DNA of 64,000 nucleotides. Source: a bacterium (GTDB lineage Bacteria; Krumholzibacteriota; Krumholzibacteriia; G020349025). A program made the position numbers and the translations under genes. The stretch spans positions 36,163-100,162 of the forward strand of contig JANLSU010000078.1 of assembly GCA_031362565.1 (NCBI GenBank). Reading direction: 5' to 3'. The notes below the pieces were generated by a model that did not search any database, had not been told where the DNA came from, and saw nothing but the letters and a program-made list of their open reading frames with translations. Positions 1 through 44,750 of this stretch are shown piece by piece; the first letter of the stretch is position 1; the number at the start of each line of letters is the position of its first letter.

Positions 1-695
1 AGCTGGTTGTTGATCGCCGTGGAGATGTTGCCTTCCTTGATTCCGACGCGCAGCTGCGTCGAACCAAGCGTCTGCAGACTCGAGTTCACGGTCGTGATGG
101 CCGCGTTGACCGCCGCCAGGGCCGTCGACGCGTTTGAAGTCGAGTCGACCGCGAGTGCCGCGTCGTTGACGCCGAGGCCGGTGGCGCCATGGTTCTGCGA
201 CACCGAGAACGACAGCGTGTCGGTCGAACCCTGGCCGACCTGGAACTGCTTGCTCGTGAACGTGCCGTCGAGCAGCTTCTGGCCGCCCCACTGGGTCGTG
301 TTCACGATGTCGTCGACTTCGCTCGCGAGCTGGTCGAGCTGGCTCTCCACCGCGGTGCGCTCGTCCGTGCCGAGCGTGTCACTGGCGGCTTGGAGGACTT
401 TTTCCTTCATGACCAGGAGGATCTCGTTGATCGACTGCATGCCGCCTTCGGCCGTCGACACCAGGTTCGACACGTCACCGATGTTGTCACGCGCGACGAC
501 CAGACCACGCGTCTTCGACTCGAGGTTCTTCGCAAAAACCAACCCTGCCGGGTCATCGCCAGCCTGGTTGATGCGCTTGCCGGTCGCGATGCGGAGCTGA
601 TGCATCGCCAGGTTCGAGTTGGCGTCGCGGAGCGCCTTCAACGCGTTCAAGGCGCCGATATTGGTATTGATCCGCGACAGATCCGGGCCTGCCAT
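1..695 (-). CDS. fliC: Flagellin (3' end runs off the window)
   Basis: Not in the ORF track; translated by hand from ATG at 695: MAGPDLSRINTNIGALNALKALRDANSNLAMHQLRIATGKRINQAGDDPAGL...AEGGMQSINEILLVMKEKVLQAASDT, a typical flagellin N-terminal domain. RBS AAAGGGG upstream. Confidence 0.95.
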   Translation of the reverse strand, partial: MAGPDLSRINTNIGALNALKALRDANSNLAMHQLRIATGKRINQAGDDPAGLVFAKNLESKTRGLVVARDNIGDVSNLVSTAEGGMQSINEILLVMKEKVLQAASDTLGTDERTAVESQLDQLASEVDDIVNTTQWGGQKLLDGTFTSKQFQVGQGSTDTLSFSVSQNHGATGLGVNDAALAVDSTSNASTALAAVNAAITTVNSSLQTLGSTQLRVGIKEGNISTAINNQ

Positions 696-724
696 GTGGG
701 TCCCCTTTCACAATTTAGGACGCA

Positions 725-781
725 GTCCGTGCCAGGAGCTTGGGCGCCGGTGAGCGGCGCCGGCTGCGAAGCGTCCGTGCC
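725..781 (-). promoter_or_regulatory. Two putative CsrA-binding sites (ACGGA) in the flagellin 5'UTR
   Basis: The 9-mer GGCACGGAC occurs twice on the minus strand (773-781, 725-733), each in a short stem-loop context; matches the ANGGA CsrA motif; fliW is in the cluster. Confidence 0.55.
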
Positions 782-816
782 TTCTGGCCGGTGCGTCGCT
801 CTTGGCTCCAGGGACT

Positions 817-843
817 TCATCGCAAGCCTGAGCCCGAACTTGA
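817..843 (-). promoter_or_regulatory. Sigma-28 (FliA) promoter of flagellin
   Basis: Minus strand TCAAGTTC-N11-TGCGATGA versus consensus TAAAGTTT-N11-GCCGATAA; about 120 bp upstream of the flagellin ATG and overlapping the last codons of the KaiC-like gene. Confidence 0.7.
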
Positions 844-2493
844 GCCGTCTGGACGTGCAGCACCGCGGAATGAATCGGCAACCACAGGATGCGGCCCACC
901 CGCATTGGCAACCTGCGGATCCCCTGCCATCGGTGCGGGCAGTGCATCCGGCACTGCGACCGGCGTCCGGCGTGGTGCCGGCAGTGTTTCCGGCAGCAGC
1001 ACGCCAAGCTTGGCAGGCATCACCGGCGACGTTGGCGGCGCGCCGGCCGGCGCCGGCGTATCGGCCATGACTCGAAAGCCATCCTTGTCGATGTGATAGT
1101 CGACGATCTGCTTCGAGTGGTCGCTGCCGGCATGCTTGGTCACCGCAATGACGCGCCGCGACCAGTCCTTGTGCGTCGAAGCCGTGAGCCGAATGACCGT
1201 GTTCGCCAAGTAACTGTAGTCCGGCACGTCACCCGCCTGGATGCCACCCAATTGCCGGATCTCGTTCAACACGATCGACGTCGTTCCAGCCGCCTGGAAC
1301 AGTGCTGCAAGCACGAGGACGTAGTCACGGACGCGATCCTCGTCCTTCACCGCCGCCCACAAGTCGTCGATGCTGTCGAGAACGAGACGGCGCGGCTGCG
1401 TGGTCCGCAGATCGCGCATCAGGCCATCGATCATTTCCTCGACGCACAGGGTCGTGGGATCGTGGTGGCGAATGAGCAGCGCGCCACTGCGATACGCCGC
1501 CGACCAGTCCATTTGCAGCGATTGAGCCTGGGCCAGAATCTGGTCCGGCGTATTCTTGATGCTGAGCAAGAGGCAATTCTCGCCGGCGCGTAGGCCGGAG
1601 TCGATGAAGTGTTGCGCCAGCACGGATTTGCCGGTCCCGGGCGGGCCGGAGACGAGGTTCAGCGAACCATTCCAGAGCCCGCCATCCAACATCGCGTCGA
1701 CACCGCGGACGCCCGTCGACACGCGGGTGCGATCGGGCTTTGCCAGGTCGCCCATGATGCGATGCACGTCCACCGGGCGCAGACGTGGATACACGACGAC
1801 ACCTTCAGGCCCGAGCTTGAAAGGATGGCGCCCCGAGAGATGCGGTTGGCCGCGCGTCTTCCGCACCTCGATTTGGCGCAAGTTCTCGCCCCCGCCCGTC
1901 GAGTTGACGTTGTGCAGCCGGATCGACGCATCGACCAAGTACTCCTCGAAGGCGATCGTTTCATCGTTCAGACGGTCGAGTTCCTTGACCAGGATGGACG
2001 TGATGCCCCGCAGCTTGAGAGCGTTCAGAATCTGGCCCAGTAGTTCGCGCAAGCCTTGCTCTTCGGCGGTGACACGCCGGAAGTGGGTGATGCTGTCGAT
2101 GACGAGCCGGCGAACGCCGATTTCCTCGACGATCTTGTCGACCAGATCCAGCTTGCCGCTGAAACTCTTCAGAATGCGCGCCGGCGGCGTCCACACCAGA
2201 CGCAGCAGGCCGGCGGCTTCAAGCGGCTTCAGGTCGATTCCAAACTGCAGAGCCTCGAGGTACACCTGGCGCGGAAATTCTTCGAAGGTGATCATGAGTG
2301 CCGGCTCGGAGTATTTGACGATGCCTTCGTAGAGAATCCGCATCGCGACGCTGCTCTTGCCGCTGCCGGGTGGGCCCTCGATGAGCAAGCTGTTGCCGCG
2401 CACGAGGCCGCCGTCCAGGAGGTGGTCCAGTCCGGCGATGCCGGTCGGCATCCGTTCAAAACCTTGCCCAGGGTCGGTGATCGCGGTGCGCAT
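817..2493 (-). CDS. KaiC-like double RecA-domain ATPase
   Basis: Two RecA-like domains: TGIAGLDHLLDGG/GPPGSGKS/ITFEE/LVIDSI/VRKTRG and TGVRGVDAMLDGG/GPPGTGKS/LVLDSI; Pro/Ala-rich tail. Start placed at MRTAITD (2493) because the longer ORF overlaps the upstream gene. Confidence 0.9.
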   Translation of the reverse strand: MRTAITDPGQGFERMPTGIAGLDHLLDGGLVRGNSLLIEGPPGSGKSSVAMRILYEGIVKYSEPALMITFEEFPRQVYLEALQFGIDLKPLEAAGLLRLVWTPPARILKSFSGKLDLVDKIVEEIGVRRLVIDSITHFRRVTAEEQGLRELLGQILNALKLRGITSILVKELDRLNDETIAFEEYLVDASIRLHNVNSTGGGENLRQIEVRKTRGQPHLSGRHPFKLGPEGVVVYPRLRPVDVHRIMGDLAKPDRTRVSTGVRGVDAMLDGGLWNGSLNLVSGPPGTGKSVLAQHFIDSGLRAGENCLLLSIKNTPDQILAQAQSLQMDWSAAYRSGALLIRHHDPTTLCVEEMIDGLMRDLRTTQPRRLVLDSIDDLWAAVKDEDRVRDYVLVLAALFQAAGTTSIVLNEIRQLGGIQAGDVPDYSYLANTVIRLTASTHKDWSRRVIAVTKHAGSDHSKQIVDYHIDKDGFRVMADTPAPAGAPPTSPVMPAKLGVLLPETLPAPRRTPVAVPDALPAPMAGDPQVANAGGPHPVVADSFRGAARPDGSSSGSGLR

Positions 2494-2519
2494 GTGGGTG
2501 CCGTTTCGTTGGTTTGGAT

Positions 2520-4634
2520 CTATCGCGTTTCGCAGCCGCAATAGGGGCAGGCTTGCCACTCCGGGCTTTGCGGGGCATTGCACTGGGTGCAGTAGGCTTG
2601 CTTCCAGTCGCGCTCGATTTCGTTGCCGCAGTGGGCGCAGACTTCCCAGTTCGCTTCGACCGGCCGGGTGCACGTCGGACAGCTCTCGCGCAGCACCGTC
2701 TTGCAGTACGGGCAGTTGGCGTATTCGATACTGACGAGCTGCTTGCAGCCGGTGCACAGGCGCTCGTGCGCTTCTTCCGACAGCAGGCAACGCTCGACCT
2801 CGGCGATCGTCGTGATGCCTTCCAAGACGGCACGCTTGCCGTATTCGCCCAAGGTCATCATGCCGTCGCGGCGCGCCGCATTGCGCAGCGCCGAGGAGGA
2901 GGCACGTTCGAGCACCATGCGGTGGTATCGCTCCTCGAGCCGGAAGTATTCGAAGACCGCCAGGCGGCCCCGATAGCCGGTGAAGCCGCATTCGGTGCAG
3001 CCGAGGCCGCGGTACAACTGCGGAACGTCGGTTCCGAGCACGGCGATCTCGGTGGGACTCGGCACGTAGGCTTCCTTGCACGGCACACAGATCGTGCGCA
3101 CGAGCCGCTGCGCCAAAACTCCGCGCAGGGTCGCGGTGATGAGATACGGCACACAGCCCATGTCCACCAGGCGCGCCACGGCTTGCGTCGCGTCGTTGGT
3201 GTGCAGCGTGCTGAAGACCTTGTGGCCGGTCAGTGCAGCTCGACACGCAATCTCGACGGTGTCATTGCTGCGAATTTCGCCGACCAGCACCACATCCGGG
3301 TCCTGCCGCAGGATCGATTGCAACGCCCGTTCGAAGGTCAAACCGGCCGGTTCATTGATCTGAACCTGGGTGATGCCCGCCAGCGAATACTCGATCGGGT
3401 CTTCGATGGCGACGATGTTCTGCGATTCCCGGTCGAGTGCCGCGAGCGTCGCGTACAGCGTCGTCGTCTTGCCGCTGCCGGTCGGCCCGGTGACCAGGAA
3501 GAATCCCTGCGGGTTTTCGATCATGTCGCGATGCAGGGCCCGGATTGCATCCGGCATTTGCAGCTTGGTGATGTCGAGAAGACTCATGTCCTTCTTCAAC
3601 AGGCGCACGACGATCTTTTCACCGAACTGCGATGGCAGGCTCGAGACCCGCAGGTCGACGAGGATGCCGTCGCGCTGCATCGAGAAGCGGCCGTCTTGTG
3701 GCATCCGGCGCTCGGCAATGTCCATTTGCGACATGACTTTCAATCGTGACGTGACCGCCGGGGTCAGCGCATCCGGCAGTGACGCAACATGATGCAGGAT
3801 GCCGTCGATTCGAAAGCGAATGCCGAGCGCGCCAAGCCCCGGCTCTACATGCGCGTCGGTGGCATCCATCGAATATGCCGCGCTCAACATTTCCTCGACG
3901 ATATCGGTCGCATTCGCGGCGTGTTGCTTCAGCCGTTCTTCGATGTCGAAACGGCCGGCGTGTTGCGACGCCTGGCCGGACACCGCCGGCGCCGAGTCGA
4001 ATTCGTCCCGCGCCGCCGCCGGCAGGGGCCGTGCAGTTTCGACGCCCGGCGCTGGACCAGTGGCGGTCGATGCCCACGGCGTCGGTCCGGCGGCCGCCGT
4101 GGCTTGCACCGCCGGCGCCGGGGCGCGTCCGCGTCCCATCTCAGTGTGCGTGGCCTCCGACTGGGCGACGAGTTCGGCGACCTTGGCGTAGTGCGCGTCG
4201 ATGACTTCGCAAAGATCGCCGGGCAGCGCTACGAAGCTGCGCAGCTTGCGCTGCAGCACTGCCGTCACGGCTTCCAGTGCGGCTTCGTTGTCGGGCCGCG
4301 CGAATGCGACGCACACCGTGTCGCCCTGAACACCGACGACGAGCGCTTGATGCCGCTTGGCAAGGCGCGACGGCAGCATGCGCACGAGACGCGCATCGTA
4401 GACGACCGCATGCACGTCGATCGCCGGGGAGAAATAGTAGTTCTCGAGCACCTGGAGGAGCTGGCGGCGCGACATGGCGCCTTCGCGGACGAGCAACGCC
4501 TCGATGGAGATCTGTTCGTCTTGCGCCACCGCCGCCCACAAGCTGGCGCGTGGTTCATCGAGAATCTTGCAATGGATGAGAATGGCGTCGAGCCCGACCT
4601 CTTCGGCGGATCGAAGCGCTTCGGTCAACGGCAT
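2520..4634 (-). CDS. GspE/PilB-family secretion ATPase with degenerate MshEN N-terminus and C-terminal zinc-ribbon array
   Basis: Walker A GPTGSGKT, Asp box IEDPIEY, Walker B VVLVGEIR, His box GHKVFSTLH, internal CxxC...CxxC, six further CxxC at the C-terminus. Confidence 0.92.
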   Translation of the reverse strand: MPLTEALRSAEEVGLDAILIHCKILDEPRASLWAAVAQDEQISIEALLVREGAMSRRQLLQVLENYYFSPAIDVHAVVYDARLVRMLPSRLAKRHQALVVGVQGDTVCVAFARPDNEAALEAVTAVLQRKLRSFVALPGDLCEVIDAHYAKVAELVAQSEATHTEMGRGRAPAPAVQATAAAGPTPWASTATGPAPGVETARPLPAAARDEFDSAPAVSGQASQHAGRFDIEERLKQHAANATDIVEEMLSAAYSMDATDAHVEPGLGALGIRFRIDGILHHVASLPDALTPAVTSRLKVMSQMDIAERRMPQDGRFSMQRDGILVDLRVSSLPSQFGEKIVVRLLKKDMSLLDITKLQMPDAIRALHRDMIENPQGFFLVTGPTGSGKTTTLYATLAALDRESQNIVAIEDPIEYSLAGITQVQINEPAGLTFERALQSILRQDPDVVLVGEIRSNDTVEIACRAALTGHKVFSTLHTNDATQAVARLVDMGCVPYLITATLRGVLAQRLVRTICVPCKEAYVPSPTEIAVLGTDVPQLYRGLGCTECGFTGYRGRLAVFEYFRLEERYHRMVLERASSSALRNAARRDGMMTLGEYGKRAVLEGITTIAEVERCLLSEEAHERLCTGCKQLVSIEYANCPYCKTVLRESCPTCTRPVEANWEVCAHCGNEIERDWKQAYCTQCNAPQSPEWQACPYCGCETR

Positions 4635-6109
4635 GACATGCCTCGCGTTTCAGCCGCCGGCGCCATCTGCTGGAGATGCACGCGCGCCTGATCGTCGTCG
4701 CCCAACTTGTGATACAGACCCGCGAGACGCCGGTGTGCTTCCTCGCACGTCGCGTCGATCTGCAGCACGTTTTCGTAACTCTCGGCAGCCGCCGCGAGTT
4801 GGTTCAAGCCCATGCGGAGCCGCGCTTGCAAGCGGAACAACTCCGCATCGCGCACCTGCTGCACGGCTTCACCCGCGGTGGTGAGCGCCGCATCGAGATC
4901 GGTGTCGGCGAGCGCGCACACCAGTTCGCACCAGCCGCCCGCCAGGTCGGGCTCGAGCTGTGTGGCGCGCCGCCAGTGCGTGAGCGCTGCATCGTGCGCG
5001 CCGCGCTGAGCTGCGAGGCGCGCCAGGAGGCGCTCACACGGCGCCCACCCGGGCCGGGCTGCCTGTACCTCTGCTGCAGCCTCTGCCGCCTGGGCCCAAT
5101 TCCCGGCGCGGAACTGACACTCCGCCAAAATGAGCCAAGCGCGCGGTGCGTCCGGCGCAAAGCCCAGGCTCGAGCCGCTAGCGGTTCCACGCGCGCACTG
5201 CCGCAAGTACGCCTGCGCGTCGGCGCGCGCGGCATCGAAGGCACCTTGGCGCGTCCGCGCTGCGGCACGCACCAAGAGCGCCATCGCCGTCTGCGGGTCG
5301 ATCCGCAGCGCTGCATCCGCCGCGGTCACCGCCTCAGCCAATCGTCCGAGTTTCAGCAAGACACTCGCCAGGTTCTGGTACGCGGCGGCGCGGTGTGCCG
5401 AATCGAGGCTGTTGGTGCGAAGCGCCGCCTCGTAGTACGGCACGGCTTCAGCCGGTTGCTGCAGCAAGGATTGCGTCTCGGCCAAGTGATACAGCACGAA
5501 TCCATCGCCCGGGCGGTCGGCAAGATCGAGTTCGAGAAGACGAAGATTGCGCTCCAACTTGATCCGTTTGGGTCCCGTGTCGATACAGTAGCCAGAATGC
5601 ACGAGCACAATATCGCTCCTGCCGATCACGCACCCGGCGGCGGCGAGCGATGGGGTCACTTGTTCGTGAACGCGGCCCTGGAATCGCACCCCGGCGAGAT
5701 TGCGGAACAGGCGCGGGTAGCGATGGACGAATTCCTGGCCTGCCTGCGAGCCGGCAAGCGGGCTGCGAATCGCGACCAGCCAAGCACCGGTATCGGCACG
5801 GCGCAGGCACTGTCGCAACGCCGCCTCTTGGCCCGGCGCCAACTCTTCGTCGGCGTCGAGACACAGGATCCAGTCGCCGGTTGCGGCCGCCAACGCTGCG
5901 TTGCGTGCCGCCGCGAAATCCTCTTGCCATGGCACTTCGAGGACGCGCGCCCCGTGTGCTTGGGCGATCGCAATCGTCGCATCGGTCGAACCCGTGTCCA
6001 CGACGATGATTTCCGGCGCGACGTCGCGCACCGAGGCCAGCGCCTTCGCCACGACCGCAGCTTCGTTGCGGACGATCATGCAGATGGAGAGATTGCTGCC
6101 GCGATGCAT
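4625..6109 (-). CDS. Family 2 glycosyltransferase with TPR repeats (likely flagellin glycosylation)
   Basis: SICMIVRNE, VDTGSTD, DFAAARN, LDADE, GRVHEQ followed by TPR helices; RBS AAGGAG before ATG 6109. Confidence 0.9.
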   Translation of the reverse strand: MHRGSNLSICMIVRNEAAVVAKALASVRDVAPEIIVVDTGSTDATIAIAQAHGARVLEVPWQEDFAAARNAALAAATGDWILCLDADEELAPGQEAALRQCLRRADTGAWLVAIRSPLAGSQAGQEFVHRYPRLFRNLAGVRFQGRVHEQVTPSLAAAGCVIGRSDIVLVHSGYCIDTGPKRIKLERNLRLLELDLADRPGDGFVLYHLAETQSLLQQPAEAVPYYEAALRTNSLDSAHRAAAYQNLASVLLKLGRLAEAVTAADAALRIDPQTAMALLVRAAARTRQGAFDAARADAQAYLRQCARGTASGSSLGFAPDAPRAWLILAECQFRAGNWAQAAEAAAEVQAARPGWAPCERLLARLAAQRGAHDAALTHWRRATQLEPDLAGGWCELVCALADTDLDAALTTAGEAVQQVRDAELFRLQARLRMGLNQLAAAAESYENVLQIDATCEEAHRRLAGLYHKLGDDDQARVHLQQMAPAAETRGMSCR

Positions 6110-6123
6110 GGCGGACTCCTTCG

Positions 6124-6573
6124 TCACGCGTCGCCACGCCGCGCTTGCAGCGCGTCGAGGACCCGGTAACGTGCTGGCCAGCGATCACCGGGAAGCACGA
6201 TTTGAACGCCACGGCGGCGCTTGGGATTGACGAGAATCGGCCCCTTCAAATTGGCGGTCATCTCGCCCGGGTCATCGGGAATACCGACCGTGACCAGTAC
6301 CATCACGCCCGAATCTTCCCACCAGTGCACCGCGGCCGCGTCGGCTTCGGAAATCTCGACGGTGTAGTCCGGGCAAATGAGGAACGGCTCGATGACGACG
6401 AATGCCAAAGAGGGGTCTTGCAGCGATTGCAGCAGCCGCAGCGGCGACTTCGGGCCATGCTCGAGCAGTACGTAGCGATGCTCGTGCTCGAACCCAAAGA
6501 GGCCGCGCTCGAACTCCAAGACATCCGCCTCGGAGACCTCGACCACACCGTATCGCTCCGTCTGCACCTGCAT
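6124..6573 (-). CDS. fliW: Flagellar assembly factor FliW
   Basis: F..GLFGFE, LQSLQDPSLAFVVIEPF, MTANLKGPILVN; follows flgL. Confidence 0.93.
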   Translation of the reverse strand: MQVQTERYGVVEVSEADVLEFERGLFGFEHEHRYVLLEHGPKSPLRLLQSLQDPSLAFVVIEPFLICPDYTVEISEADAAAVHWWEDSGVMVLVTVGIPDDPGEMTANLKGPILVNPKRRRGVQIVLPGDRWPARYRVLDALQARRGDA

Positions 6574-6606
6574 CGAAATCCGACGCCCCTTCTTCCCCCA
6601 AAGGAA

Positions 6607-7716
6607 CTACCGCAGGAAGTTCGTGAGACTCATTTGAAACATGCGCGAGGTGGCCGCGAGCGCCGCCTGATAGGCGTTCTGTTGCGCCTGCAGCCGCACC
6701 ATCGTCTCGGGCAGATCCGCGTCCCGCACCTGGGACAGGTGGTCTTCGAGCGCCAGGTGGTCGCTGGCCAGGAGTTGGCTCTGGGTCTCGAGCGCCGCCG
6801 ACCGCGCGCCGAGCAATCCGACTTGCTTGCCGACGTTGGAAATCGCCGTGTCGATGCCGCTCAAGAGCGAGCGCACCTTGTCGCCGTCGTTTTTCCACAG
6901 GGCGTTCTTGAGATCGATGGCGAGTTGAAACAAATTGCTGCCGTTGGTGAAGACTTCCGGCCCGGTGAGATTCACGGGTTCGGTCCGTTCCGGGCCGATC
7001 TGGCGCAAGATGTCACCCGTCAGCGTGCCTTGAGCCGGTACGGCGCTCGTCGTCTGGGTCGTGTAACTCGCGGTGTAGTCCGTGCCGTCGAGCATCGCGC
7101 CGCCCGGAATCGCTTCGATGCGGCCTTTGTCGTAGTCGATGCGGTAGTCGACGCCTTCGCGATAGGTCACCGCACCGTTGGTCGATCGCACCACGACCGA
7201 TCCGGCGGCGAGCTTGGCGTTCGCCAGGTCGACCTCAGTGGCGATTCCGGCGCGAAACGTCTCCGAAGCGACCGCCGTGCTCTTGGCATAGGGCGCTGAC
7301 TCGCTGCGGAAACCACCAAAGAGATACCGGTCGCCATCCGTGGCGTTCGCTTGCTCCACCAATTCCTGCAGCAACTGATCGACGGAAGTGCCCAAGGTGC
7401 CGCGTTCGCCGTTCGAGTCGTCGCTGCCGCGGAGTGCGATCTCCTTGAGCTTCGACAAGAGTTCCTGCACGGTGCCCAAGGGATGCTCGGTCGCCGCCAC
7501 CCAATGCGCCCCGTCGTCGACATTGGCCTGGTACTGCGCGTTGCGCTCCAGGAGCGCTTGTAGCTTTTGCGACAGCATCGTGCCGCTCGGATCCTGCGAC
7601 GGCCGCGCGAACCGCCGTCCCGTGGCGATTTCCTGCTGGTATTCGTTGATCTGGCCGAGGGCCCGCGCAACGTTTTGGCGCATCGAACGATGCATCTGTG
7701 CGTCGGTGACTCTCAT
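6607..7716 (-). CDS. flgL: Hook-associated protein 3 FlgL
   Basis: MRVT...IATGRRFARPSQDP, RYLFGG, flagellin-like C-terminus (SLTNFLR); follows flgK. Confidence 0.92.
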   Translation of the reverse strand: MRVTDAQMHRSMRQNVARALGQINEYQQEIATGRRFARPSQDPSGTMLSQKLQALLERNAQYQANVDDGAHWVAATEHPLGTVQELLSKLKEIALRGSDDSNGERGTLGTSVDQLLQELVEQANATDGDRYLFGGFRSESAPYAKSTAVASETFRAGIATEVDLANAKLAAGSVVVRSTNGAVTYREGVDYRIDYDKGRIEAIPGGAMLDGTDYTASYTTQTTSAVPAQGTLTGDILRQIGPERTEPVNLTGPEVFTNGSNLFQLAIDLKNALWKNDGDKVRSLLSGIDTAISNVGKQVGLLGARSAALETQSQLLASDHLALEDHLSQVRDADLPETMVRLQAQQNAYQAALAATSRMFQMSLTNFLR

Positions 7717-7726
7717 TCGGGCCTCC

Positions 7727-9094
7727 TCACATCCGGACGATGGAATCGAGCATCTGGTCGATGGTCGTCGTGACGCGTACCATCGCCTGGTACGCATGCT
7801 GCGTCGCCATCATCTGGGTCATTTCTTCGTCGAGCGAGACGCCGCTGACGTCGGCGCGCTGCGCATCGATCTGGTCGAGGATCGCGCCTTGCGCGTCCTG
7901 AAACGATTGCGCTTGGCTGGTGTCGAGGCCGATACGGCCGACCATGCTGCGATAGGCCGAACCCAGCGTCTCGGTGCCGTTGCCCAGCAGTTTCGAGCCG
8001 GCGATCTGCGCCATCGCAAGCGCCTGGCGCCCATCGCCGCGCTCGCCGCCGGCCGATGCGGCGATGAGGTTGACGTCGCCCTCGATCGCGGCGTCGATCC
8101 GGATGTCGCCGGCGTGGACGCGCGTCGGATCAAAGAAATTGTGTCCGGTCGACCCATCGAGCCTGGTGCCCGCCGCATGGATCCGGTTGGTTTCGGCGAT
8201 GAGGCCAGCCGCGATGTCGTCCAGGGCCTGGCGATAGGCGGCAATTCGGTCATCGCGCGTCGTGAGAAGTCCGCTCAGACGTCCGCCGGCGAGAACGGGT
8301 GATTGCTTCGTATCCTGCCAACGGATGGCGGTGGAGCCGCTCCCCGGATCCGCGACTTCCAAGGCGCGTGCTTCCGGCCCCTGCACCAGCACCTCGGAGC
8401 CAAGATGCACCGTGATGGATCCGGCGGCGTTCTCTTCCACTTGCACGTTGGCGAGGCCGGCGAGTTCATCGACCAACCGGTCGCGCTCGTCGAGCAGGCC
8501 GCTCGGTTCGTCGCCATTCGATTTGGCGGCCACGACCATGGCATTGAGAGCGCCGAGACGTGTCGCGATCGAATTGACGCGGTCGACGCCCGTGCCGATC
8601 TCGCCGTTGATGTCTTCGACCAGAGAGTCGAGATGCGAATCGAGCCGCTTGAAGGTGTCGGTCAGCGCCCGCGCTTTCTCACGCACCGCGATGCGTGCCG
8701 AACCACTCTCGGGCTGGTTCGCGAGGTCGCTCCAGGACTTCCAATACTCGGCGAGTGCCGGTCCGAGGCCGGTGCTGTCGTCGGCTGGAAAAGCGCTTTC
8801 GACCCGCGACAGCGATTCTTGCATCGAACCCCAACGCCCGAAATCGGTGTGGTGGCCGCGATACGACTTGTCGAGAATTCCATCCCGGGCCCGGCTCACG
8901 CCGACCACGTCGACGCCGGTGCCCATGCTGCCGGAGGGCGTTTGAATATCCATTCCGGGCCGCAATTCGGCGCGCCGGCGCGAGTAGCCGGGCGTCTCGA
9001 CGTTGGCAATGTTGCCGCCCAGCACGTTCAGCGTCAGCTGATGGGCCCGCAGCGCGCGGCGCGCAATCTCCAAGCCTGCCGATAGACCGAACAC
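7727..9094 (-). CDS. flgK: Hook-associated protein 1 FlgK
   Basis: NIANVETPGYSR, LLDERDRLVDEL, SGVSLDEEM. Confidence 0.95.
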   Translation of the reverse strand: MFGLSAGLEIARRALRAHQLTLNVLGGNIANVETPGYSRRRAELRPGMDIQTPSGSMGTGVDVVGVSRARDGILDKSYRGHHTDFGRWGSMQESLSRVESAFPADDSTGLGPALAEYWKSWSDLANQPESGSARIAVREKARALTDTFKRLDSHLDSLVEDINGEIGTGVDRVNSIATRLGALNAMVVAAKSNGDEPSGLLDERDRLVDELAGLANVQVEENAAGSITVHLGSEVLVQGPEARALEVADPGSGSTAIRWQDTKQSPVLAGGRLSGLLTTRDDRIAAYRQALDDIAAGLIAETNRIHAAGTRLDGSTGHNFFDPTRVHAGDIRIDAAIEGDVNLIAASAGGERGDGRQALAMAQIAGSKLLGNGTETLGSAYRSMVGRIGLDTSQAQSFQDAQGAILDQIDAQRADVSGVSLDEEMTQMMATQHAYQAMVRVTTTIDQMLDSIVRM

Positions 9095-9106
9095 GGCGTC
9101 CTCCGT

Positions 9107-9619
9107 TCAGGCACTGTGATCGACGAGAGTGTCGATCTGGCTGCGAGTCAGCGTTCCCGAGGCTTGGTACGTCGGTGCTGCCGGCGCGCGGCCGCTTGCC
9201 GCCGCCAGCATCGTTTCGATGAATTCGAGCGACTGCTCGATGAGACGGCGGTTGTCGTTGTTGACCCGCGTGACGATCGCGAGCGCTTCGCGGCCGGTCG
9301 TCGAGAGCGACTCGAGCTCCTGGCCCAGCGTGCCACCCAACGCGCCCGCCAGGTCGCGCAGTGTCGCCTTGCCGGCCTCGAGTCCCAATCCGGCCGAAAG
9401 CTGGGTCAGGACGCGGGTGCGTTGTTCGTCGGCGGTACGGAGCTTGTCGAGCACTGCCGTCTGCTCGGCAAGCGATGCCAGAACGGCCTCGACATCGCGG
9501 CCGATAACCGCGGTTTGCTGCTGCCGCAAGGTCGCTTCGAGCTTGCGCAGGTGATCGACCTGTTGGTTGACCAACGTCGCGAGTTCGCGCGCCAGTTCTT
9601 CGTGCCGGGAGCCGGTCAT
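9107..9619 (-). CDS. flgN: Flagellar export chaperone FlgN
   Basis: Coiled coil, VNNDNRRLIEQSL, TYQASG; immediately upstream of flgK. Confidence 0.85.
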   Translation of the reverse strand: MTGSRHEELARELATLVNQQVDHLRKLEATLRQQQTAVIGRDVEAVLASLAEQTAVLDKLRTADEQRTRVLTQLSAGLGLEAGKATLRDLAGALGGTLGQELESLSTTGREALAIVTRVNNDNRRLIEQSLEFIETMLAAASGRAPAAPTYQASGTLTRSQIDTLVDHSA

Positions 9620-24919: not shown

Positions 24920-25678
24920 TCACTGTTCGTGGCCGAAAATCCCCAGCCGCAGTGCGGCATGTACAAGGCCGGCTTCGGTATGCACGTCCAGCTTGCGCAT
25001 GATGTGCGCGCGGTGCGTGTGGACCGTCCGGGTGGCGATGTTCAGTTGGGCGCCGATATCGCGCGACCCTTTGCCGCTCGCGACCAAGCGCAGAACTTCG
25101 CGTTCACGGTTCGTCAACGGCCGGCGATGCGGCGCGCCGCCGCGTTCGACGTAGTCGCGCACCACGACCCGCGACGTCCCCGCCGACAAGTGGAAGCGTC
25201 CCGCGTGGACGGCGCGGACGACCGCCGGCAACTCGTCGACGTTCTCGTCCTTCAAGAAGTAGCCGGCAGCGCCGTGTTCGAAGGCGGTGCGCACGGCGTC
25301 TTCGGACCGGCGCTGTGAAAGCACAACGGTGCGCGTGCCGGGACAGGCGCGGCTCACCTCATCTAAGACGTCGAGGCCGCCGCAGCCTGGAATCGCCAGG
25401 TCGAGAACGATGACATGCGGCTGCGTGCGCAGCGCCAGCGACAGCGCCTGCGCGCTGTCATGTGCCTCGCCGACGATTTCGAAGTCGGGGACGCGCGACA
25501 GCACGAAGCGAAGGCCGGCGAGAACCAGCGTGGTCCCATCGGCCAGCAGCACGCGGATCGGCGTCGTCGCCGCGGCGCGCGCCGGCTGAACCTCGGACTC
25601 GGTCCAGAGCCATGGCCCGAATTCGCGTCCCGCCGCTGGAGACTCCCGTGCTGGTTCGTATGCGAGTGGCGTTTTCAT
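24920..25678 (-). CDS. NarL/FixJ-family response regulator (REC + LuxR HTH)
   Basis: IRVLLAD, VIVLDLAIP, GYFLK, LTNREREVLRLVASG...TVHTHRAHIMRKL; start uncertain (25678 chosen; track gives 25753). Confidence 0.9.
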   Translation of the reverse strand: MKTPLAYEPARESPAAGREFGPWLWTESEVQPARAAATTPIRVLLADGTTLVLAGLRFVLSRVPDFEIVGEAHDSAQALSLALRTQPHVIVLDLAIPGCGGLDVLDEVSRACPGTRTVVLSQRRSEDAVRTAFEHGAAGYFLKDENVDELPAVVRAVHAGRFHLSAGTSRVVVRDYVERGGAPHRRPLTNREREVLRLVASGKGSRDIGAQLNIATRTVHTHRAHIMRKLDVHTEAGLVHAALRLGIFGHEQ

Positions 25679-26278
25679 TCTGGGACGGCATTCAGCAAGG
25701 TCTCTGCCACGCGAGTGATTCTCATCGTGTGATAGGGGTTCCGACTTGAGCACTATCGTGATCCGACGTATGCGACGTACGACTGGCCGTGCTGCGCGTT
25801 GTTGCGACTGCTCGATTCGGAGGCGCGCGGGCGGGCTTTCGATCGTTCCGGCGCTCAGTCTCCGCCACCATCATTTGCAGGACGTGATCGAACGCAGTCC
25901 AATTGGATGAACCACAGGCGGGTGTTCAGAGGATGTCTGGATGAGTGATTTGAACTACGGGGGGGCACGTGGTTCCGGGGCGCGGCGCCGCCGGACCGAC
26001 CTGGATCGCGCATTTCTACGCCACTCAGCCTCTAGAATCCGGCGAAATCGTAGTTTAGCGTAGTTCTTCTGAATGATACGCCGCTTGGCCGTTCGCCCGA
26101 TACCGACCCCCCGTACACACGATTCCGAGGGCCGTCACCGTCCTGTCCCGTTTTATGCGTCCTCTATTTGACAACTCGCGGGGATGAGGTATATGCATCC
26201 CGTCAATCGCCCCTCGCGGGATGTGTGCGGGCAGACCGGAACTGCCCAGGACCGGGAACTCGGATGGAGGGGTTCGCA

Positions 26279-27010
26279 GTGCCTTATCAGTCGACCGTGA
26301 AGGTGGAATCGCCTGGTTCCGCGCGTGTCGAGCACGAGATCGTGACGCCGGCGCCATTTGGATCTCCGTGCCCGCCAGTTCGTGTGCTTGTCGTAGACCG
26401 CCCCGGGTGGGTGTATTTCGGTTCCGCAGCAGTGGCGAGTGACAACGCCTCTCTCGAGGTCGTGGGCCGGGCGCTCGATGCGTCCGACGCGGCTCGCTTG
26501 GCGTTGCAAACCCGGCCGGACGTGCTCGTGGTCAACTTGCCGTCCGATCCGCGCCGTGCCATCGATACCATTCAGGAACTGAAGCGTACCCTTCCCGACA
26601 CCCGGATGGTCGCCTTTGCGTCGATCGGCAGCGGGCCGTTCGTACGCGAAGCGTTCGAGGCCGGCGTCGCCGCGCTGCTTTTCCGCGACGACGATCCGGC
26701 GATGCTGGCAGAGGTCATCCGCACCGTGCGGAGCGGGAAGTTCGTGGCGCCGTTCGTGTCGGAGATCTTGCGCGACGACGCGGCCCGCGCTGTCGAGCAG
26801 GAGTCGTTCGTGAATGTTCTGACCCGCCGGGAGTGGAGCGTTCTGAAACTGATCGCCGAAGGCCTCAACTCGCGCCAGATGGCGGGCGGCCTCGGTATCA
26901 AGCTCACCACCGTGCACGCGCACCGGGCCAACATCATGAAGAAGCTGAACATCCACAAGGCGGTTCAGCTCTCGCAGTACTACTTCCGGTACGTGGCGTA
27001 CGTTCGCTGA
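26279..27010 (+). CDS. Atypical NarL-family regulator (pseudo-receiver + LuxR HTH)
   Basis: LTRREWSVLKLIAEG...TVHAHRANIMKKL; REC has Asn at the phospho-Asp position (DVLVVNLP); GTG 26279 preceded by GGAGG. Confidence 0.85.
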   Translation: MPYQSTVKVESPGSARVEHEIVTPAPFGSPCPPVRVLVVDRPGWVYFGSAAVASDNASLEVVGRALDASDAARLALQTRPDVLVVNLPSDPRRAIDTIQELKRTLPDTRMVAFASIGSGPFVREAFEAGVAALLFRDDDPAMLAEVIRTVRSGKFVAPFVSEILRDDAARAVEQESFVNVLTRREWSVLKLIAEGLNSRQMAGGLGIKLTTVHAHRANIMKKLNIHKAVQLSQYYFRYVAYVR

Positions 27011-40797: not shown

Positions 40798-43700
40798 CTA
40801 GCGAACCACCACCATTTTCCGGCTTTGTGATACCTCGCCCGCTTCAAATCGATAGACATATACGCCCGACGCCACGACAGCGTGCTGGTCGTTCCGTCCG
40901 TCCCACGCAACCCGATACTGGCCGGGAACGGTCTGTCGATCATGAAGAACTCGTACGAGGCGCCCGGAAACGTCGTACACGCGAAGCCGTGCTTGTGTCT
41001 TTGTCGCGATGTCGAACTGAATCTGTGTGCTCGGGTTGCAGGGGTTGGGGTAGTTTGCATACAATCGAGTGACCAACGGCGGTAGCAACCCCTCAGGTTC
41101 CTGGTCTGTATCCGTCGTGCCAAGGCCACCACACCCACCACCAAGCACATCGGAGACAATGCTTCTCGCCAGGGTCTCCGTTGGTGACGGTCCTGTGGTG
41201 GTTGTCCGGAGGATCGCGTTCCACGGGAATGTCATCAACACGATGTTCTGGTGGGCCGGGTGGTACTCCCCATTCACGCCAGAGGTAAAGGCTCGGTTGC
41301 TCATCAGGACCATGCCTTGGTTGCCGTATTTATTCGTGATAGCGACTTCTTGTTGTGGGAAGCCGACGCTCATGGTTGACACGCCATCGTAGTCCGGATC
41401 CTGTGGACAAACATTGGTCAATCGCAGATCGACAAAGGTCTTCGGTAGAGCGTAGCCGTTCGCCTGAATGAACCGAAACGGTGCAGCATGCCCGATTGTA
41501 GCGTCAGTACCTTGCAGAATAACCGCACTCTCAATTTGCGAACCCCCGAGACCCAGCTCTGAGCCGAGCAGGCTCCCGACCGTATGACGAGTTGTTGACG
41601 CTATGTTTTCGCCGATCAACCACAACGTGGCCGCGCCCTTGCCAAGGACCGACATACCAGCGAGACCAAGCCAACTCTGATACCATGCGTCCTGCGTGAG
41701 GGGTGCGAGTTCAAGATCGCTGCCATCAGGCAACGCGCCGACGTGCAGGGTCCCTGCGTCGTGAATAATCAACGAGTATTTTATGGCCTGGTCGGGCCGT
41801 GCCCTGCTCGCCAGATCGTTCGACACATTGCCGAATCCCTGGACATCATAGACGTCGTAGTTGCCGGTATATCCGATTGTGTCGAGGGTGTACATGAAGG
41901 ACGTTCGATTCGCACGACCGCTCCGACGACTCGTGTTCACCTTGTTGACGTACAGAATGCAGTTTGTTTGCGGGCTCGCACCTTTCTCCTCGGTAGTCGG
42001 CGTAAGCTTACCATGCGCATCCGCCGCAACTCGCGCCAGATAGGTCGACGACCACGAGATTGTGGGCAAGAAGTTGACCTCAAACAGACCGCCGGTGACA
42101 GCTTCGGCCTGAGTAACATTGGGGATCGGCGACGATAGTCCCGGTGGCAGGCTTGCGCTAGCGAGTCCCTGGTCGATGGCTAACCAGAAATAGCGCACCA
42201 CGTCGCCACCGCGGAAATAGTCGTCGTCAAGATCAACAAAATAGAGGCCAGCGACAGCGGCTCCGGATGCAGTGCGACAAACCTCTGCGCCGACCGCAAA
42301 GAAACCGGTTGTACCAACCGTATATGGGGCCGGCGCTTTGCCAGCGTGTGGTCCGGCTACGATTGCGGCGTACAACGTGACCGTAGCGATCGGCGATCCT
42401 CGCCGATCTCGCGCGGAGATAAAGATCGAGTCAGGCGCGCCGCTTCCACCCCGGAGGAATCCACTCGAACCAAACGAACAGCTTCCCCATACGTCGCCCA
42501 CGACAAGTGGGGTCCCGGCGCTGAAGGTGTCCTGTGCCTGCGAGCGAGTGTCTTCGCCAGCGTTCAGCACCGGCCCTGTCACGGCAAATCGCCCGATTCG
42601 AACCCGATCGATATAGGGGCCGGGGCCTGGATCGAAAACTGCCGGTGGGGACCCCCCGTATAGGTACTGCCAATCGGCGACGCGAAACCGCACCTGAACA
42701 GAGCCCCAGCCCGCCTCAACAAAGGGCGTTATGTCTAGCGCGCGGTCGACCCAGGAGAATGCTCCAAGATCCTGCCATGTGCCCTTTGAACCCTGTGCCG
42801 AGTTGCTCCACGGTGATGCACAAGTGCTTCCGCTTGGGATTCCACGGACAGACCAGTTTCGCACGACTCGTCCATGCTCGAACGGATTGCCAGGAAACTC
42901 ACGGAATCGGAGAACCGTTCCAGGCTTATTGCTCGGCAACGCAACCCAGGGGCTTACTATGATCTCGTCGAGCCACGAGTGAATAACGGCTTGCCCAGGT
43001 CCGAAACCCATAAACGGATATAGACCGATGGATGCAATTCGAATGGGGTCCGTGAACAACCAGGCACACGTACCGTTCTCGGTACACTGATCGTTATCCG
43101 TAATGTGATTGAACACCCGACTCCAAGGGGCTGTATTCCACGTCGAGGCCGCCGGGCGTGTTGGCGCGCTGTTAACGGGCACAACGTATGGACTCCATGT
43201 TTGATTCTCGAAATCCTCCGAGTAGGGAAGACCGCCGGTTACTGTGATGTTGTCGATGATCAAACCTGCGTTCATCGCAGTGAGATACTTGCCATCCTCG
43301 TCTGACCCCGCATCGTCCGACCAGAACCGAATATACCAACATCCATTCGTGGTGCCTTCCTGGGGCGAGCAGGAGGCCGGATTTGTACTCTGGCACGTAT
43401 TCACCGTAATGCGCGCATGTGCGACCGACCCCGAAAAACTAGATGCGTCGTTTGGCAAGCGCACTCGAAGTCTGGTGGGCACGTCACTTTCGTCGAGCTG
43501 CGCGGACGAATTACACCCGAAGTCAACCTCTACAGACAGGCCGTCAGAAGATTCGCAGTCCACGATGTAGTCGAAGGACAAAGTCGACGCCGCACCCTCA
43601 AAGCTAACCCGCAGCGACTGATCCCAATCATTGCCGTATCCGGGATTCTGGACCCAGCAAGGATTTGAACTCCTGAGAACCGCTGCTTTCCCGGTGACTC

Positions 43701-44604
43701 CACCCGACCCATCCAGCCCGTCGTACCCCGCCACCGCCGACCAATAGACCTGGCCGTTGTTCAAGACGCGGTTGTCGAGCCTCTGCCAGCCAGTCATTGC
43801 GCACGTGGATCCGGAATCGAAACTCCAGTCGGCTACCCAGGCAGTATCGCTCTGTGTCTTGCTCGCGGGTGGAGAAATGGCTGCGGATTCAATGTCTGGC
43901 TGACCCGGATCTGCGATCAGAGTCGGCTTTCGGAAAACCTCTGATGCCACCTCATTGCCCGCCGACGGATCCGGGGTTGATGACACTTCTGGCGCATTGA
44001 GCCCGGAGGCAAAGACGGGAATATCGCCGCTGACCTGGGACAAGACGGCCTTTGCAAAGGAGCACGGTGGCTCGGAACCGGCAGTCATGCACACCGATGA
44101 GAATTGGGGCCCATCGCAAACAGTAAAGAGGGGGCACGGGAAGTTTGCGTTTGAGGGTCGGCTATGGCGTTTCACGAGTAGGCTAGTGGGACTTCCTCCC
44201 GCGTTGAAGACACTCAACGTCCCGAGCCCGACTGCTCCTTCAGTCGACGGGGTTTGGCAGGCTGCGAACGCAATGTTGAGGCCAGATCCATCGAGGTCGT
44301 TCGCCGGAAACAGGTCGACCATGGTTCCAAGTGGCGTAGAACCGCTTGGAGGGTTGTAGCTAAAGAACCATCCGGCGGGTTGCGTCACTTCCACACGAAA
44401 CTCAGCGCCGACGATCCCACTTGCGGTGTTACCCGCCACCTTCGCAACGACGTAGAGAGTGGTGCCGGTAAACGCTGGAATGGTGGTACACGCGATTGTG
44501 CCGGCGGGGTCCAGGTAGATTCCGACGTAGCCATCTCCTGCGCTCGCGGATTCCACGGCCACCGTGAGGCTGCTCACAATCACCAACGATTGGAGAAGAC
44601 GCAT
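40798..44604 (-). CDS. Large secreted multidomain protein with C-terminal FlgD-Ig/T9SS-like domain
   Basis: Signal peptide MRLLQSLVIVSSLTVAVESASA; C-terminus NYPNP.NPST...VYDVSGRLVR...WDGRND...ASGVY. Confidence 0.85.
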   Translation of the reverse strand: MRLLQSLVIVSSLTVAVESASAGDGYVGIYLDPAGTIACTTIPAFTGTTLYVVAKVAGNTASGIVGAEFRVEVTQPAGWFFSYNPPSGSTPLGTMVDLFPANDLDGSGLNIAFAACQTPSTEGAVGLGTLSVFNAGGSPTSLLVKRHSRPSNANFPCPLFTVCDGPQFSSVCMTAGSEPPCSFAKAVLSQVSGDIPVFASGLNAPEVSSTPDPSAGNEVASEVFRKPTLIADPGQPDIESAAISPPASKTQSDTAWVADWSFDSGSTCAMTGWQRLDNRVLNNGQVYWSAVAGYDGLDGSGGVTGKAAVLRSSNPCWVQNPGYGNDWDQSLRVSFEGAASTLSFDYIVDCESSDGLSVEVDFGCNSSAQLDESDVPTRLRVRLPNDASSFSGSVAHARITVNTCQSTNPASCSPQEGTTNGCWYIRFWSDDAGSDEDGKYLTAMNAGLIIDNITVTGGLPYSEDFENQTWSPYVVPVNSAPTRPAASTWNTAPWSRVFNHITDNDQCTENGTCAWLFTDPIRIASIGLYPFMGFGPGQAVIHSWLDEIIVSPWVALPSNKPGTVLRFREFPGNPFEHGRVVRNWSVRGIPSGSTCASPWSNSAQGSKGTWQDLGAFSWVDRALDITPFVEAGWGSVQVRFRVADWQYLYGGSPPAVFDPGPGPYIDRVRIGRFAVTGPVLNAGEDTRSQAQDTFSAGTPLVVGDVWGSCSFGSSGFLRGGSGAPDSIFISARDRRGSPIATVTLYAAIVAGPHAGKAPAPYTVGTTGFFAVGAEVCRTASGAAVAGLYFVDLDDDYFRGGDVVRYFWLAIDQGLASASLPPGLSSPIPNVTQAEAVTGGLFEVNFLPTISWSSTYLARVAADAHGKLTPTTEEKGASPQTNCILYVNKVNTSRRSGRANRTSFMYTLDTIGYTGNYDVYDVQGFGNVSNDLASRARPDQAIKYSLIIHDAGTLHVGALPDGSDLELAPLTQDAWYQSWLGLAGMSVLGKGAATLWLIGENIASTTRHTVGSLLGSELGLGGSQIESAVILQGTDATIGHAAPFRFIQANGYALPKTFVDLRLTNVCPQDPDYDGVSTMSVGFPQQEVAITNKYGNQGMVLMSNRAFTSGVNGEYHPAHQNIVLMTFPWNAILRTTTTGPSPTETLARSIVSDVLGGGCGGLGTTDTDQEPEGLLPPLVTRLYANYPNPCNPSTQIQFDIATKTQARLRVYDVSGRLVRVLHDRQTVPGQYRVAWDGRNDQHAVVASGVYVYRFEAGEVSQSRKMVVVR

Positions 44605-44693
44605 AGTTTGCCTCCGAACGAATGACGCCGCTTGTGTTGCGGTAACAACGTAAAACCGCGATGGACACTTGTCCATCGTTTTCTTCTGCTCGG

Positions 44694-44727
44694 TTGACTT
44701 CCTATGCTGTTGCTGTTAAATTTAACA
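44694..44727 (+). promoter_or_regulatory. Sigma-70-type promoter overlapped by a perfect palindrome
   Basis: TTGACT-N17-TAAATT; palindrome TGTTAAATTTAACA (44714-44727) covers the -10 box. Confidence 0.55.
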
Positions 44728-44750
44728 TGAGCCCTTCGGAGCGTGGTTCG

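Follow-up and report, generated by a model that had tools for sequence, protein, structure and literature searches.

The window analyzed here, a 64,000-nt stretch of contig JANLSU010000078.1 (assembly GCA_031362565.1, labelled genome G000, which is rated 100% complete and consists of 133 contigs), contains two adjoining genes that encode a PilB-like ATPase with a zinc-ribbon tail and a double-domain KaiC-like ATPase. The pair consists of two intact genes that are under purifying selection and always adjacent, and the pairing of PilB-like with KaiC-like genes is, because of the conservation counts given below, far beyond chance. Since the pair occurs elsewhere among signaling genes, it is most likely a regulatory module that was wired to swimming in the lineage of the window. 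Our current hypothesis, which we consider about as apt to be right as wrong, is that the pair is a conserved, co-inherited cytoplasmic two-ATPase signaling module that was captured by the flagellar regulon and tunes late flagellar motility.

Orthologues of the KaiC-like protein (E ≤ 1e-60) were found in nine of 208 genomes and in five of the 81 genera of the phylum, and each of the nine carriers has, immediately 5′ of the KaiC gene and in the same orientation, a PilB-type gene with a zinc-ribbon tail. A metagenome scan with an alignment of the KaiC subfamily returned 27 loci, a set that includes duplicates (L061 is the same as L060, L066 the same as L065, and L058 the same as the G044 locus). 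In 26 of the 27 loci, a T2SSE ATPase gene on the same strand immediately precedes the KaiC gene; for the remaining locus, only 135 bp of upstream sequence is available. The upstream ATPase is of the long, tailed type in 21 of the 26; in the other five, which are among the most distant loci, it is short, with 365-383 aa for those examined with Pfam. With start codons chosen heuristically, the two genes were inferred to overlap, in most cases by 1-40 nt. The two-ATPase module that had been proposed from a sequence-only reading of the window is supported as real.

A comparison of 120 listed PilB-like clusters with 120 listed KaiC clusters in a protein database gave a similar picture. For 39 of the 77 PilB clusters with a zinc ribbon, the longest contig is exactly equal in size to that of a listed KaiC cluster, and this fraction becomes 33 of 46 when only contigs of at least 8 kb are considered; the control, PilB proteins of ∼1000 aa from the same list, gave 0 of 37. 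The source names among the listed clusters include Acidobacteriota, Terriglobia, Polarisedimenticolia, Sumerlaeota, and Omnitrophica. A protein atlas added leads to taxa only (Actinomycetota, Gemmatimonadota, and Acidobacteriota), and these carry no weight as evidence here. In addition, the KaiC and PilB trees of the loci recovered the same major clades. A contig scan with a single KaiC protein was uninformative, as it returned only two weak Anaerolineae KaiC matches (L045 and L046), and no PilB match was found on these short contigs.

Two variants of the arrangement were observed. The most distant KaiC relatives (34-40% identical) pair with the short ATPase, which is PilT-like (L065 2013-3164 and L072 695-1792), and a connection to a pilus-like system may persist in this branch. 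Separately, one 1198-aa protein call (P0241; 5.4 kb contig) contains, in a single frame, MshEN and KaiC domains together with a T2SSE match limited to profile positions 4-325. The fusion is probably a frameshift artefact, or else a rare natural fusion; a search for longer fused PilB-KaiC proteins was negative at E ≤ 1e-60, a result of little weight.

The PilB-like protein matches the Pfam profiles T2SSE (397 bits), MshEN (49.7 bits, cut-off 23.1), and DZR (46.1 bits). Its best solved relatives are PilF (E 2e-109), PilB (about 1e-105), and GspE (4e-100), a PilT structure matches far more weakly (1e-32), and archaeal FlaI is absent among the structure matches at E ≤ 1e-20. In an alignment of 21 family sequences, the Walker A, Asp box, Walker B, His box, and tetracysteine motifs are invariant, and from these motifs the ATPase is predicted to be catalytically intact. 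ATPases of the PilB/GspE type form hexamers. The 12 cysteines of the tail make up three CxxC...CxxC ribbons, every one of these cysteines is at least 90% conserved in the same alignment, and the zinc ribbon (PF12773) is present in 77 of the 120 listed homologue clusters. The protein falls below the NCBIfam cut-offs for PilB (TIGR02538, 490.9 versus 675.65 bits), GspE (TIGR02533, 490.4 versus 630.25 bits), TfpB (407.3 versus 850 bits), and FlaI (61.6 versus 550 bits).

The N-terminal domain of the PilB-like protein is of the MshEN type. Residues 14-154 also match positions 483-622 of 723, in the C-terminal part, of the NCBIfam model for NfrB (E 3e-7), a glycosyltransferase activated by cyclic di-GMP (c-di-GMP), and we take this region of the model to be its MshEN domain. 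MshEN domains reportedly contain paired 24-residue c-di-GMP-binding motifs (Wang et al. 2016). The family consensus retains the hydrophobic spacing of this motif, and its polar Arg, Gly, and Gln positions are not conserved.

The KaiC-like protein contains two KaiC domains (292 bits in total on PF06745). Residues 11-475 align with the solved KaiC 8zn5 (E 4e-56), and the match to the archaellum FlaH structure 4yds reaches only E 5.7e-6. Scores below the cut-off were obtained with the NCBIfam models PRK09302 (273.1 versus 408 bits), circ_KaiC (TIGR02655, 176.7 versus 546.25 bits), and ArlH (87.6 versus 215 bits). In the CI-like domain, the Walker A motif, the catalytic Glu-Glu pair, and an RKTRGQ segment are invariant among 20 family members, and the Glu pair aligns with the CI glutamates of KaiC from Thermosynechococcus (T.) elongatus, which we take to be E77/E78. 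The CII-like domain has retained its Walker A motif (P-loop), which is invariant in the 20 members as well; however, the CII catalytic Glu pair of T. elongatus KaiC, presumably E318/E319, aligns with Lys-Asn, and the Ser-Thr phosphosite pair, presumably S431/T432, aligns with Ser-Tyr in columns that vary across the 20 members. The CII Glu pair of KaiC is needed for autokinase activity. Since the P-loop is kept and the catalytic glutamates are lost, CII probably binds nucleotide without turning it over in the manner of KaiC. A conserved helical tail of about 90 aa follows in 14 of the 20 members; the window protein and five others lack it, and a Pro/Ala-rich tail takes its place in the window protein and its closest relatives.

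The KaiC-like protein is the sole KaiC of the genome, and a whole-genome search found neither KaiA nor KaiB. A circadian clock was rejected based on the loss of the CII Glu pair and the failure to find KaiA and KaiB. A role in anti-phage defence was also rejected, since PADLOC gave only short matches at the level of the P-loop (≤42 bits).

The genes that surround the pair in other genomes point to a signaling role. Two-component or partner-switch genes (histidine kinase, receiver, Hpt, STAS, SpoIIE, and RsbW-like genes were counted) are found within 5 kb of the pair in nine of 19 unique flanked loci. The genes directly upstream in L050, L051, L055, and L070 encode a hybrid kinase with an Hpt domain, a receiver, a receiver-RsbW-like kinase, a receiver-SpoIIE phosphatase, and a STAS protein. 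L062 has a hybrid kinase upstream and a KaiC protein fused to receiver and Hpt domains, kinases are near the pair in L048 and L068, a receiver gene lies directly downstream in L065, and G040 has a hybrid kinase 3.4 kb from the pair. Receiver-domain fusions are also present in 16 of the 120 listed KaiC relatives, four of which contain Hpt as well. By tblastn, neither the PilC of the window genome nor a pilin-sized open reading frame (ORF) of its pilus locus had a match in 36 loci (337 kb).

A KaiC tree was built with FastTree from 28 sequences, after four duplicates and five fragments shorter than 400 aa had been dropped, and was rooted, by assumption, on the group with short ATPases. Other carriers from the phylum form separate clades in this tree, and their neighbors include DUF4920, PepSY_TM-like, ECF (extracytoplasmic function) sigma factor, AMP-binding enzyme, OPT transporter, and multicopper oxidase genes. 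FlhA is present in the three such carriers that were looked at (G011, G025, and G040). One clade, formed by L034, L035, L077, and L078 (from G025, G040, G044, and G045), always has the pair flanked by a DUF4920 gene in divergent orientation and a PepSY_TM-like gene. A gene for an NAD-dependent sugar epimerase/dehydratase is located 3′ of the pair on the same strand in L048 (13434-14543, after a histidine kinase), L050 (8416-9441), L051 (11796-12842), and L070 (11898-12299), loci that span two clades; these neighbors hint at a link to surface-sugar metabolism.

Within the window, all genes of the region around the pair are on the minus strand (Table 1). A Pfam scan of 54 ORFs of at least 80 aa shows that the pair closes a long flagellar cluster, in which flgB/C, fliE-F-G-H-I, flgD, flgE, fliL-M-N-P-Q-R, flhB-A, and a sigma-28-like factor come earlier. 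The genes before the pair encode, in order, FlgF, FlgG, FlgA, FlgH, FlgI, a rod-binding protein, FlgN, FlgK, FlgL, FliW, and a GT2 glycosyltransferase with TPR repeats (GT2-TPR), and fliD, flbD, motA, and motB follow downstream of flagellin on the contig past the window. The junctions are tight: fliW and the start of the GT2-TPR gene overlap by 4 nt, the GT2-TPR stop lies 10 nt inside the PilB-like ORF, and a 26-nt spacer (2494-2519) separates the PilB-like and KaiC-like ORFs. Flagellin starts 121 nt past the KaiC-like stop. The sequence-only reading had described a complete PilB/GspE-type ATPase overlapping the glycosyltransferase stop, a KaiC-like gene 26 nt further on, and the pair at the end of a flagellar operon directly before flagellin, all of which the ORFs and the Pfam gene order confirmed. 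Its statement that PilC/GspF, secretin, prepilin peptidase, KaiA, and KaiB are missing from the window likewise agreed with the 54 ORFs scanned. Scans of positions 1-9500 found neither a sigma-70-like promoter nor, in the interval from the KaiC-like gene to flagellin, a terminator, and a sigma-28-like pattern had no match in the window; none of these results settles the operon structure. No RNA sequencing runs containing window positions 600-6200 were listed.

Table 1. Coordinates of the ATPase pair, its domains, and adjacent genes in the window.
Feature	Position	Strand	Basis
Flagellin, N-terminal part, continues past the window edge	3-695	-	Pfam Flagellin_N, 119.5 bits
Double-domain KaiC-like ATPase (558 aa)	ATG 2493, end 817	-	Two PF06745 domains
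KaiC-like, Pro/Ala-rich C-terminal tail (aa 476-558)	820-1068	-	20-member alignment
KaiC-like, CII-like domain (aa 255-475), degenerate	1069-1731	-	Motif alignment
KaiC-like, CI-like domain (aa 16-237), predicted catalytically intact	1783-2448	-	Motif alignment
PilB-like ATPase with zinc-ribbon tail ("PilB-DZR", 704 aa)	ATG 4634, stop 2520	-	ORF and Pfam
PilB-like, C-terminal triple zinc ribbon (aa 627-704)	2523-2756	-	Pfam DZR; 12 Cys, six CxxC pairs
PilB-like, T2SSE ATPase core (aa 242-615)	2790-3911	-	PF00437, profile positions 8-370 of 370
PilB-like, MshEN-type N-terminal domain (about aa 14-154)	4173-4595	-	Pfam MshEN, aa 70-151
GT2 glycosyltransferase with TPR repeats	4625-6127	-	Pfam Glycos_transf_2, 85.5 bits, and TPR families
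fliW	6124-6573	-	Pfam FliW, 123.5 bits
flgL and flgK (hook-associated proteins)	6607-9094	-	Pfam

The flagellar position of the pair is confined to one clade, which consists of the window, L047, and G004 (KaiC tree, support 0.987). Of the 27 metagenome and two Anaerolineae loci, only L047 gave matches to a set of 13 window proteins (ten flagellar), and its gene order, flgK-flgL-fliW-GT2TPR-PilB-KaiC-fliC-fliS-fliD...motA, is the same as that of the window. G004 belongs to the same family as the window genome and to a different genus. Its gene order was assembled from three contigs, which carry flgK-flgL-fliW-methyltransferase-GT2 (cut), PilB-KaiC (cut), and KaiC-fliC-fliS-fliD-x-motA-motB, respectively. 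Common to all three members is the order fliW, modification enzyme(s), PilB, KaiC, fliC, with KaiC proteins that are 62-73% identical. The sister of this clade in the KaiC tree (support 0.994) is L048, where the operon reads motA-motB-PilB-KaiC-histidine kinase-epimerase. A search of 39 loci with MotA, MotB, and FliD of the window genome and MotA and MotB of L048 found such genes only in L047, G004, and L048. Conservation of the pair beside flagellar genes, as had been expected, thus holds for the closest relatives, L047 and G004, and does not hold for most members, which lie among two-component/partner-switch or unrelated genes; the idea of a flagellar-specific pair is contradicted by these contexts.

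Across the phylum, FlhA was found in 123 of the 208 genomes, including all nine carriers of the module and 114 of the 199 genomes without it. In family f2, FlhA is present in 90 of 91 genomes and the module in 0 of 91. In the family of the window (f1), module and FlhA occur together in G000 and G004, and neither was found in G001, G002, G003, G005, and G006. Because many genomes have FlhA and not the module, the module is accessory to the flagellum and does not belong to its core. It should be noted that the nine carriers represent only three family-level lineages, and the co-occurrence with flagella is given without a statistical claim.

The genome also encodes a pilus apparatus. Contig C85 encodes a canonical PilB (T2SSE, 474 bits), PilT, the sole T2SSF/PilC protein, and a prepilin peptidase, and a whole-genome search located the single secretin on C49. 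The possibility that the window gene is the displaced pilB of an ordinary pilus locus, which had been named as a finding that would undo the module, was rejected after this genome-wide search, since the canonical pilB-pilT-pilC genes are on C85 and the PilB-like ATPase shares only 38% identity with the PilB encoded there.

Based on these observations, a working model can be outlined for how the module might operate. The nucleotide state of the KaiC-like ring would gate the PilB-like ATPase, or the reverse, by analogy to the archaellum, in which ArlH is held to gate ArlI (PMC5019145). Such gating presupposes that the two rings bind each other, and both the binding and the direction of control are our inference. 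A prediction of the complex from KaiC-like residues 10-480 and PilB-like residues 242-704, with alignments, scored 0.00 in both runs, which were made without controls, and carries no weight either way. The pair may exchange signals with phosphorelay or partner-switch proteins, as KaiC does with its histidine kinases. In the clade of the window, the module would have been captured by the flagellar regulon, where it lies in a late operon ahead of flagellin; its counterpart in the sister lineage comes after motAB. There it would most likely tune a late flagellar step, filament output or stator function, according to cellular state, with the flagellar target again suggested by position. The module would then be an accessory regulator, neither a structural component of the flagellum nor a pilus motor. 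A more direct role is also conceivable, in which a KaiC-gated PilB-type ATPase acts on the bacterial flagellum itself, for example on the MotAB stators or on late filament assembly, an arrangement that would have arisen separately from archaeal ArlI-ArlH; we consider this unlikely. If true, a motor ATPase of the type IV pilus family would have been recruited to control a rotary organelle based on type III secretion, and the wider family could be a general two-ring ATPase switch that feeds the phosphorelays of motile-sessile decisions in several phyla.

A number of observations weigh against the signaling module as we have drawn it. Ten of the 19 flanked loci, among them other carriers from the same phylum, have no signaling gene nearby. 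In the PilB tree, support for the clade of the window, L047, and G004 is weak (0.57), and L048 does not group as its sister. The flagellar link is gene order in one clade and may reflect a single historical event followed by inheritance. This last point is the core of an account in which a general signaling module landed once between a glycosyltransferase gene and fliC and is carried there as a passenger with no tie to the flagellum. The single flagellar clade, the other flagellated carriers of the phylum that keep the pair elsewhere, and family f2, which is almost uniformly FlhA-positive (90 of 91) and free of the module, all speak for it. However, two genera and one metagenome contig, whose KaiC proteins are 62-73% identical, have retained the position, the pair and its flagellar neighbors are closely spaced, a flagellar link of another kind, immediately behind motAB, is found in the sister lineage, and within family f1 the module and FlhA are either both present (G000 and G004) or both not found (five genomes). 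We regard a passenger as rather improbable.

The PilB-like ATPase retains the full set of catalytic and zinc motifs found in a working pilus motor, which also weighs against the signaling module and fits the explanation that the PilB-like protein is a second extension ATPase acting on the C85 pilus machine, with the KaiC-like protein as its switch and expression from the flagellar operon as a means to coordinate swimming with pilus-based behavior. The invariant catalytic motifs and tetracysteine site of PilB/GspE motors, the solved relatives PilF, PilB, and GspE, and the full pilus set of the genome (PilB, PilT, PilC, prepilin peptidase, and secretin) are in its favor. PilC-family platforms are encoded elsewhere in the genome and in all eight other carriers from the phylum, so a motor role on a distant pilus retains some probability. 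In the distant locus L072, a pilin-like ORF with a prepilin N-methylation motif (33-599, + strand) is located just upstream of the pair, which also points toward a pilus. A second extension motor has a precedent in TfpB of Acinetobacter (PMC8213720). Nevertheless, no homologue of PilC or of the pilin-sized ORF was found beside the pair in the 36 loci, where signaling or flagellar genes are the neighbors instead, and the protein does not reach the equivalog cut-offs for PilB, GspE, and TfpB and is only 38% identical to the PilB of its own genome. To our knowledge, neither a zinc-ribbon tail nor a KaiC partner is a feature of known pilus motors. On balance, an auxiliary pilus motor appears unlikely, though more likely than a passenger. 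The least probable account is that the pair, together with GT2-TPR, is a helper of flagellin modification or export and, for example, times or powers glycosylation before export. The 10-nt overlap of the GT2-TPR stop with the PilB-like start, the GT2 gene that precedes the pair in L047 as well, the methyltransferase and GT2 genes after fliW in G004, and the sugar epimerase/dehydratase that follows the pair in L048 (after the histidine kinase), L050, L051, and L070 would fit such a helper. In contrast, most family members have no glycosyltransferase nearby, the G004 contigs are cut between GT2 and the pair, and we know of no role for either ATPase family in glycosylation. The gating of motility, the glycosylation role, and the pilus coupling that were put forward from sequence stand as inferences.

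Returning to the signaling module, its parts can be compared with known systems. In the archaellum, the ATPase ArlI (FlaI) of the type IV filament superfamily is encoded beside, and works with, the KaiC-like ArlH (FlaH), as stated in PMC5019145. The window shares with this system the juxtaposition of a KaiC-like ATPase gene with one for an ATPase of the type IV filament superfamily, and an association with a motility organelle. However, ArlH has a single domain whereas the window protein has two KaiC domains, the window ATPase belongs to the bacterial PilB/GspE type, the pair lacks a nearby ArlJ-like platform or archaellins, and the organelle is the unrelated bacterial flagellum. Of the archaellum echo noted in the sequence-only reading, the adjoining ATPase genes stand and homology does not (FlaH, E 5.7e-6; FlaI, 61.6 versus 550 bits), and the resemblance is best taken as an analogy at the superfamily level, in logic only. 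Archaeal type IV pilus loci also contain genes for KaiC-family ATPases (Makarova et al. 2016, PMC4858521), which appear there inside pilus operons with TadC and pilins, in contrast to the bacterial host of the window pair. The window ATPase differs further from these archaeal pairs in its added MshEN domain and zinc ribbon, and in that no homologue of PilC or the pilin-sized ORF was found in the 36 loci.

Among bacterial systems, Pseudomonas KaiC-like proteins are paired with histidine kinases (bioRxiv 10.1101/2022.01.26.477890). These proteins, and cyanobacterial KaiC with SasA/CikA, share with the window family a link to histidine kinases and receivers, and the Pseudomonas proteins are, as here, double-domain KaiC without clock function. 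The constant partner in our family is instead a PilB-like ATPase, the CII glutamates are lost, and kaiB was not found; the searched text of the Pseudomonas study makes no mention of secretion, pilus, or GspE-type genes. Exchange of signals with phosphorelays has been proposed for KaiC-like proteins near kinases both in Pseudomonas (in the study just cited) and in archaea (PMC5847659 and PMC4858521). With PilB, GspE, and MshE the window ATPase has in common the ATPase core, the tetracysteine zinc site, and the MshEN-type N-domain, and it departs from them in scoring below the equivalog cut-offs, in its extra triple zinc ribbon, in the KaiC-like gene that always follows it, and in the absence of a homologue of the genome's PilC beside the pair in the loci examined. 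Myxococcus PilB can also act in signaling (PMC5544727). Finally, the HptB-HsbR-HsbA partner switch of Pseudomonas controls the choice between motility and biofilm (PMC5085249 and PMC6482189). The genes upstream of the pair in L050, L051, L055, and L070 match its parts list, namely a hybrid kinase with Hpt, a receiver-PP2C protein, a receiver-RsbW-like kinase, and a STAS protein, a likeness at the level of the parts list. We know of no ATPase pair in the Pseudomonas system.

Two related themes are already known: in archaea, type IV filament ATPases paired with KaiC-like ATPases, and in bacteria, KaiC-kinase signaling. A full-text literature search, which did not extend to most subscription journals or to supplements, found no bacterial PilB/GspE-type ATPase paired with KaiC, and the bacterial pair, as had been suggested from the sequence, is apparently undescribed. 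The pairing has so far been an archaeal theme, of the archaellum and of archaeal pili, and non-clock KaiC proteins of bacteria mostly have no assigned function on paper. Here the pair is bacterial, strictly conserved, free of pilus genes, and variously wired to phosphorelays, motAB, and a late flagellar operon. It offers a tractable system for learning how KaiC-type rings control PilB-type motors, is a candidate for a new input into flagellar motility, and would give the zinc-ribbon PilB-like ATPases, a large orphan subfamily, a function. For annotation, such genes should be named neither pilB nor circadian kaiC.

Several features of the surrounding cluster were also noted. The position of the GT2-TPR gene between fliW and the pair suggests that it encodes a flagellin glycosyltransferase. 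Its architecture may resemble that of Listeria GmaR, and its best NCBIfam match is the SunS-family peptide S-glycosyltransferase (66.5 bits, cut-off 350). The fliW gene has no adjoining csrA; the sole CsrA match of the genome is on another contig (G000:C70:13487-13642). The flagellin leader (696-816) contains blocks conserved with L047, including GGA-containing stretches at the ribosome-binding site that could be candidate CsrA sites.

Further into the cluster, two LuxR/GerE-type regulators are encoded between flgE and flgD (24920-25753, − strand, and 26168-27010, + strand; Pfam), one of which has a receiver domain, and these are possible lineage-specific flagellar regulators. The G+C content falls to 0.58-0.60 at 40798-44676 (− strand) and 44661-46415 (+ strand), a region (40798-46415) without Rfam matches. 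The 1292-aa and 584-aa ORFs located there have C-terminal sorting domains of the FlgD_ig / Por_Secre_tail type and little else that is recognizable, and are possibly acquired surface proteins.

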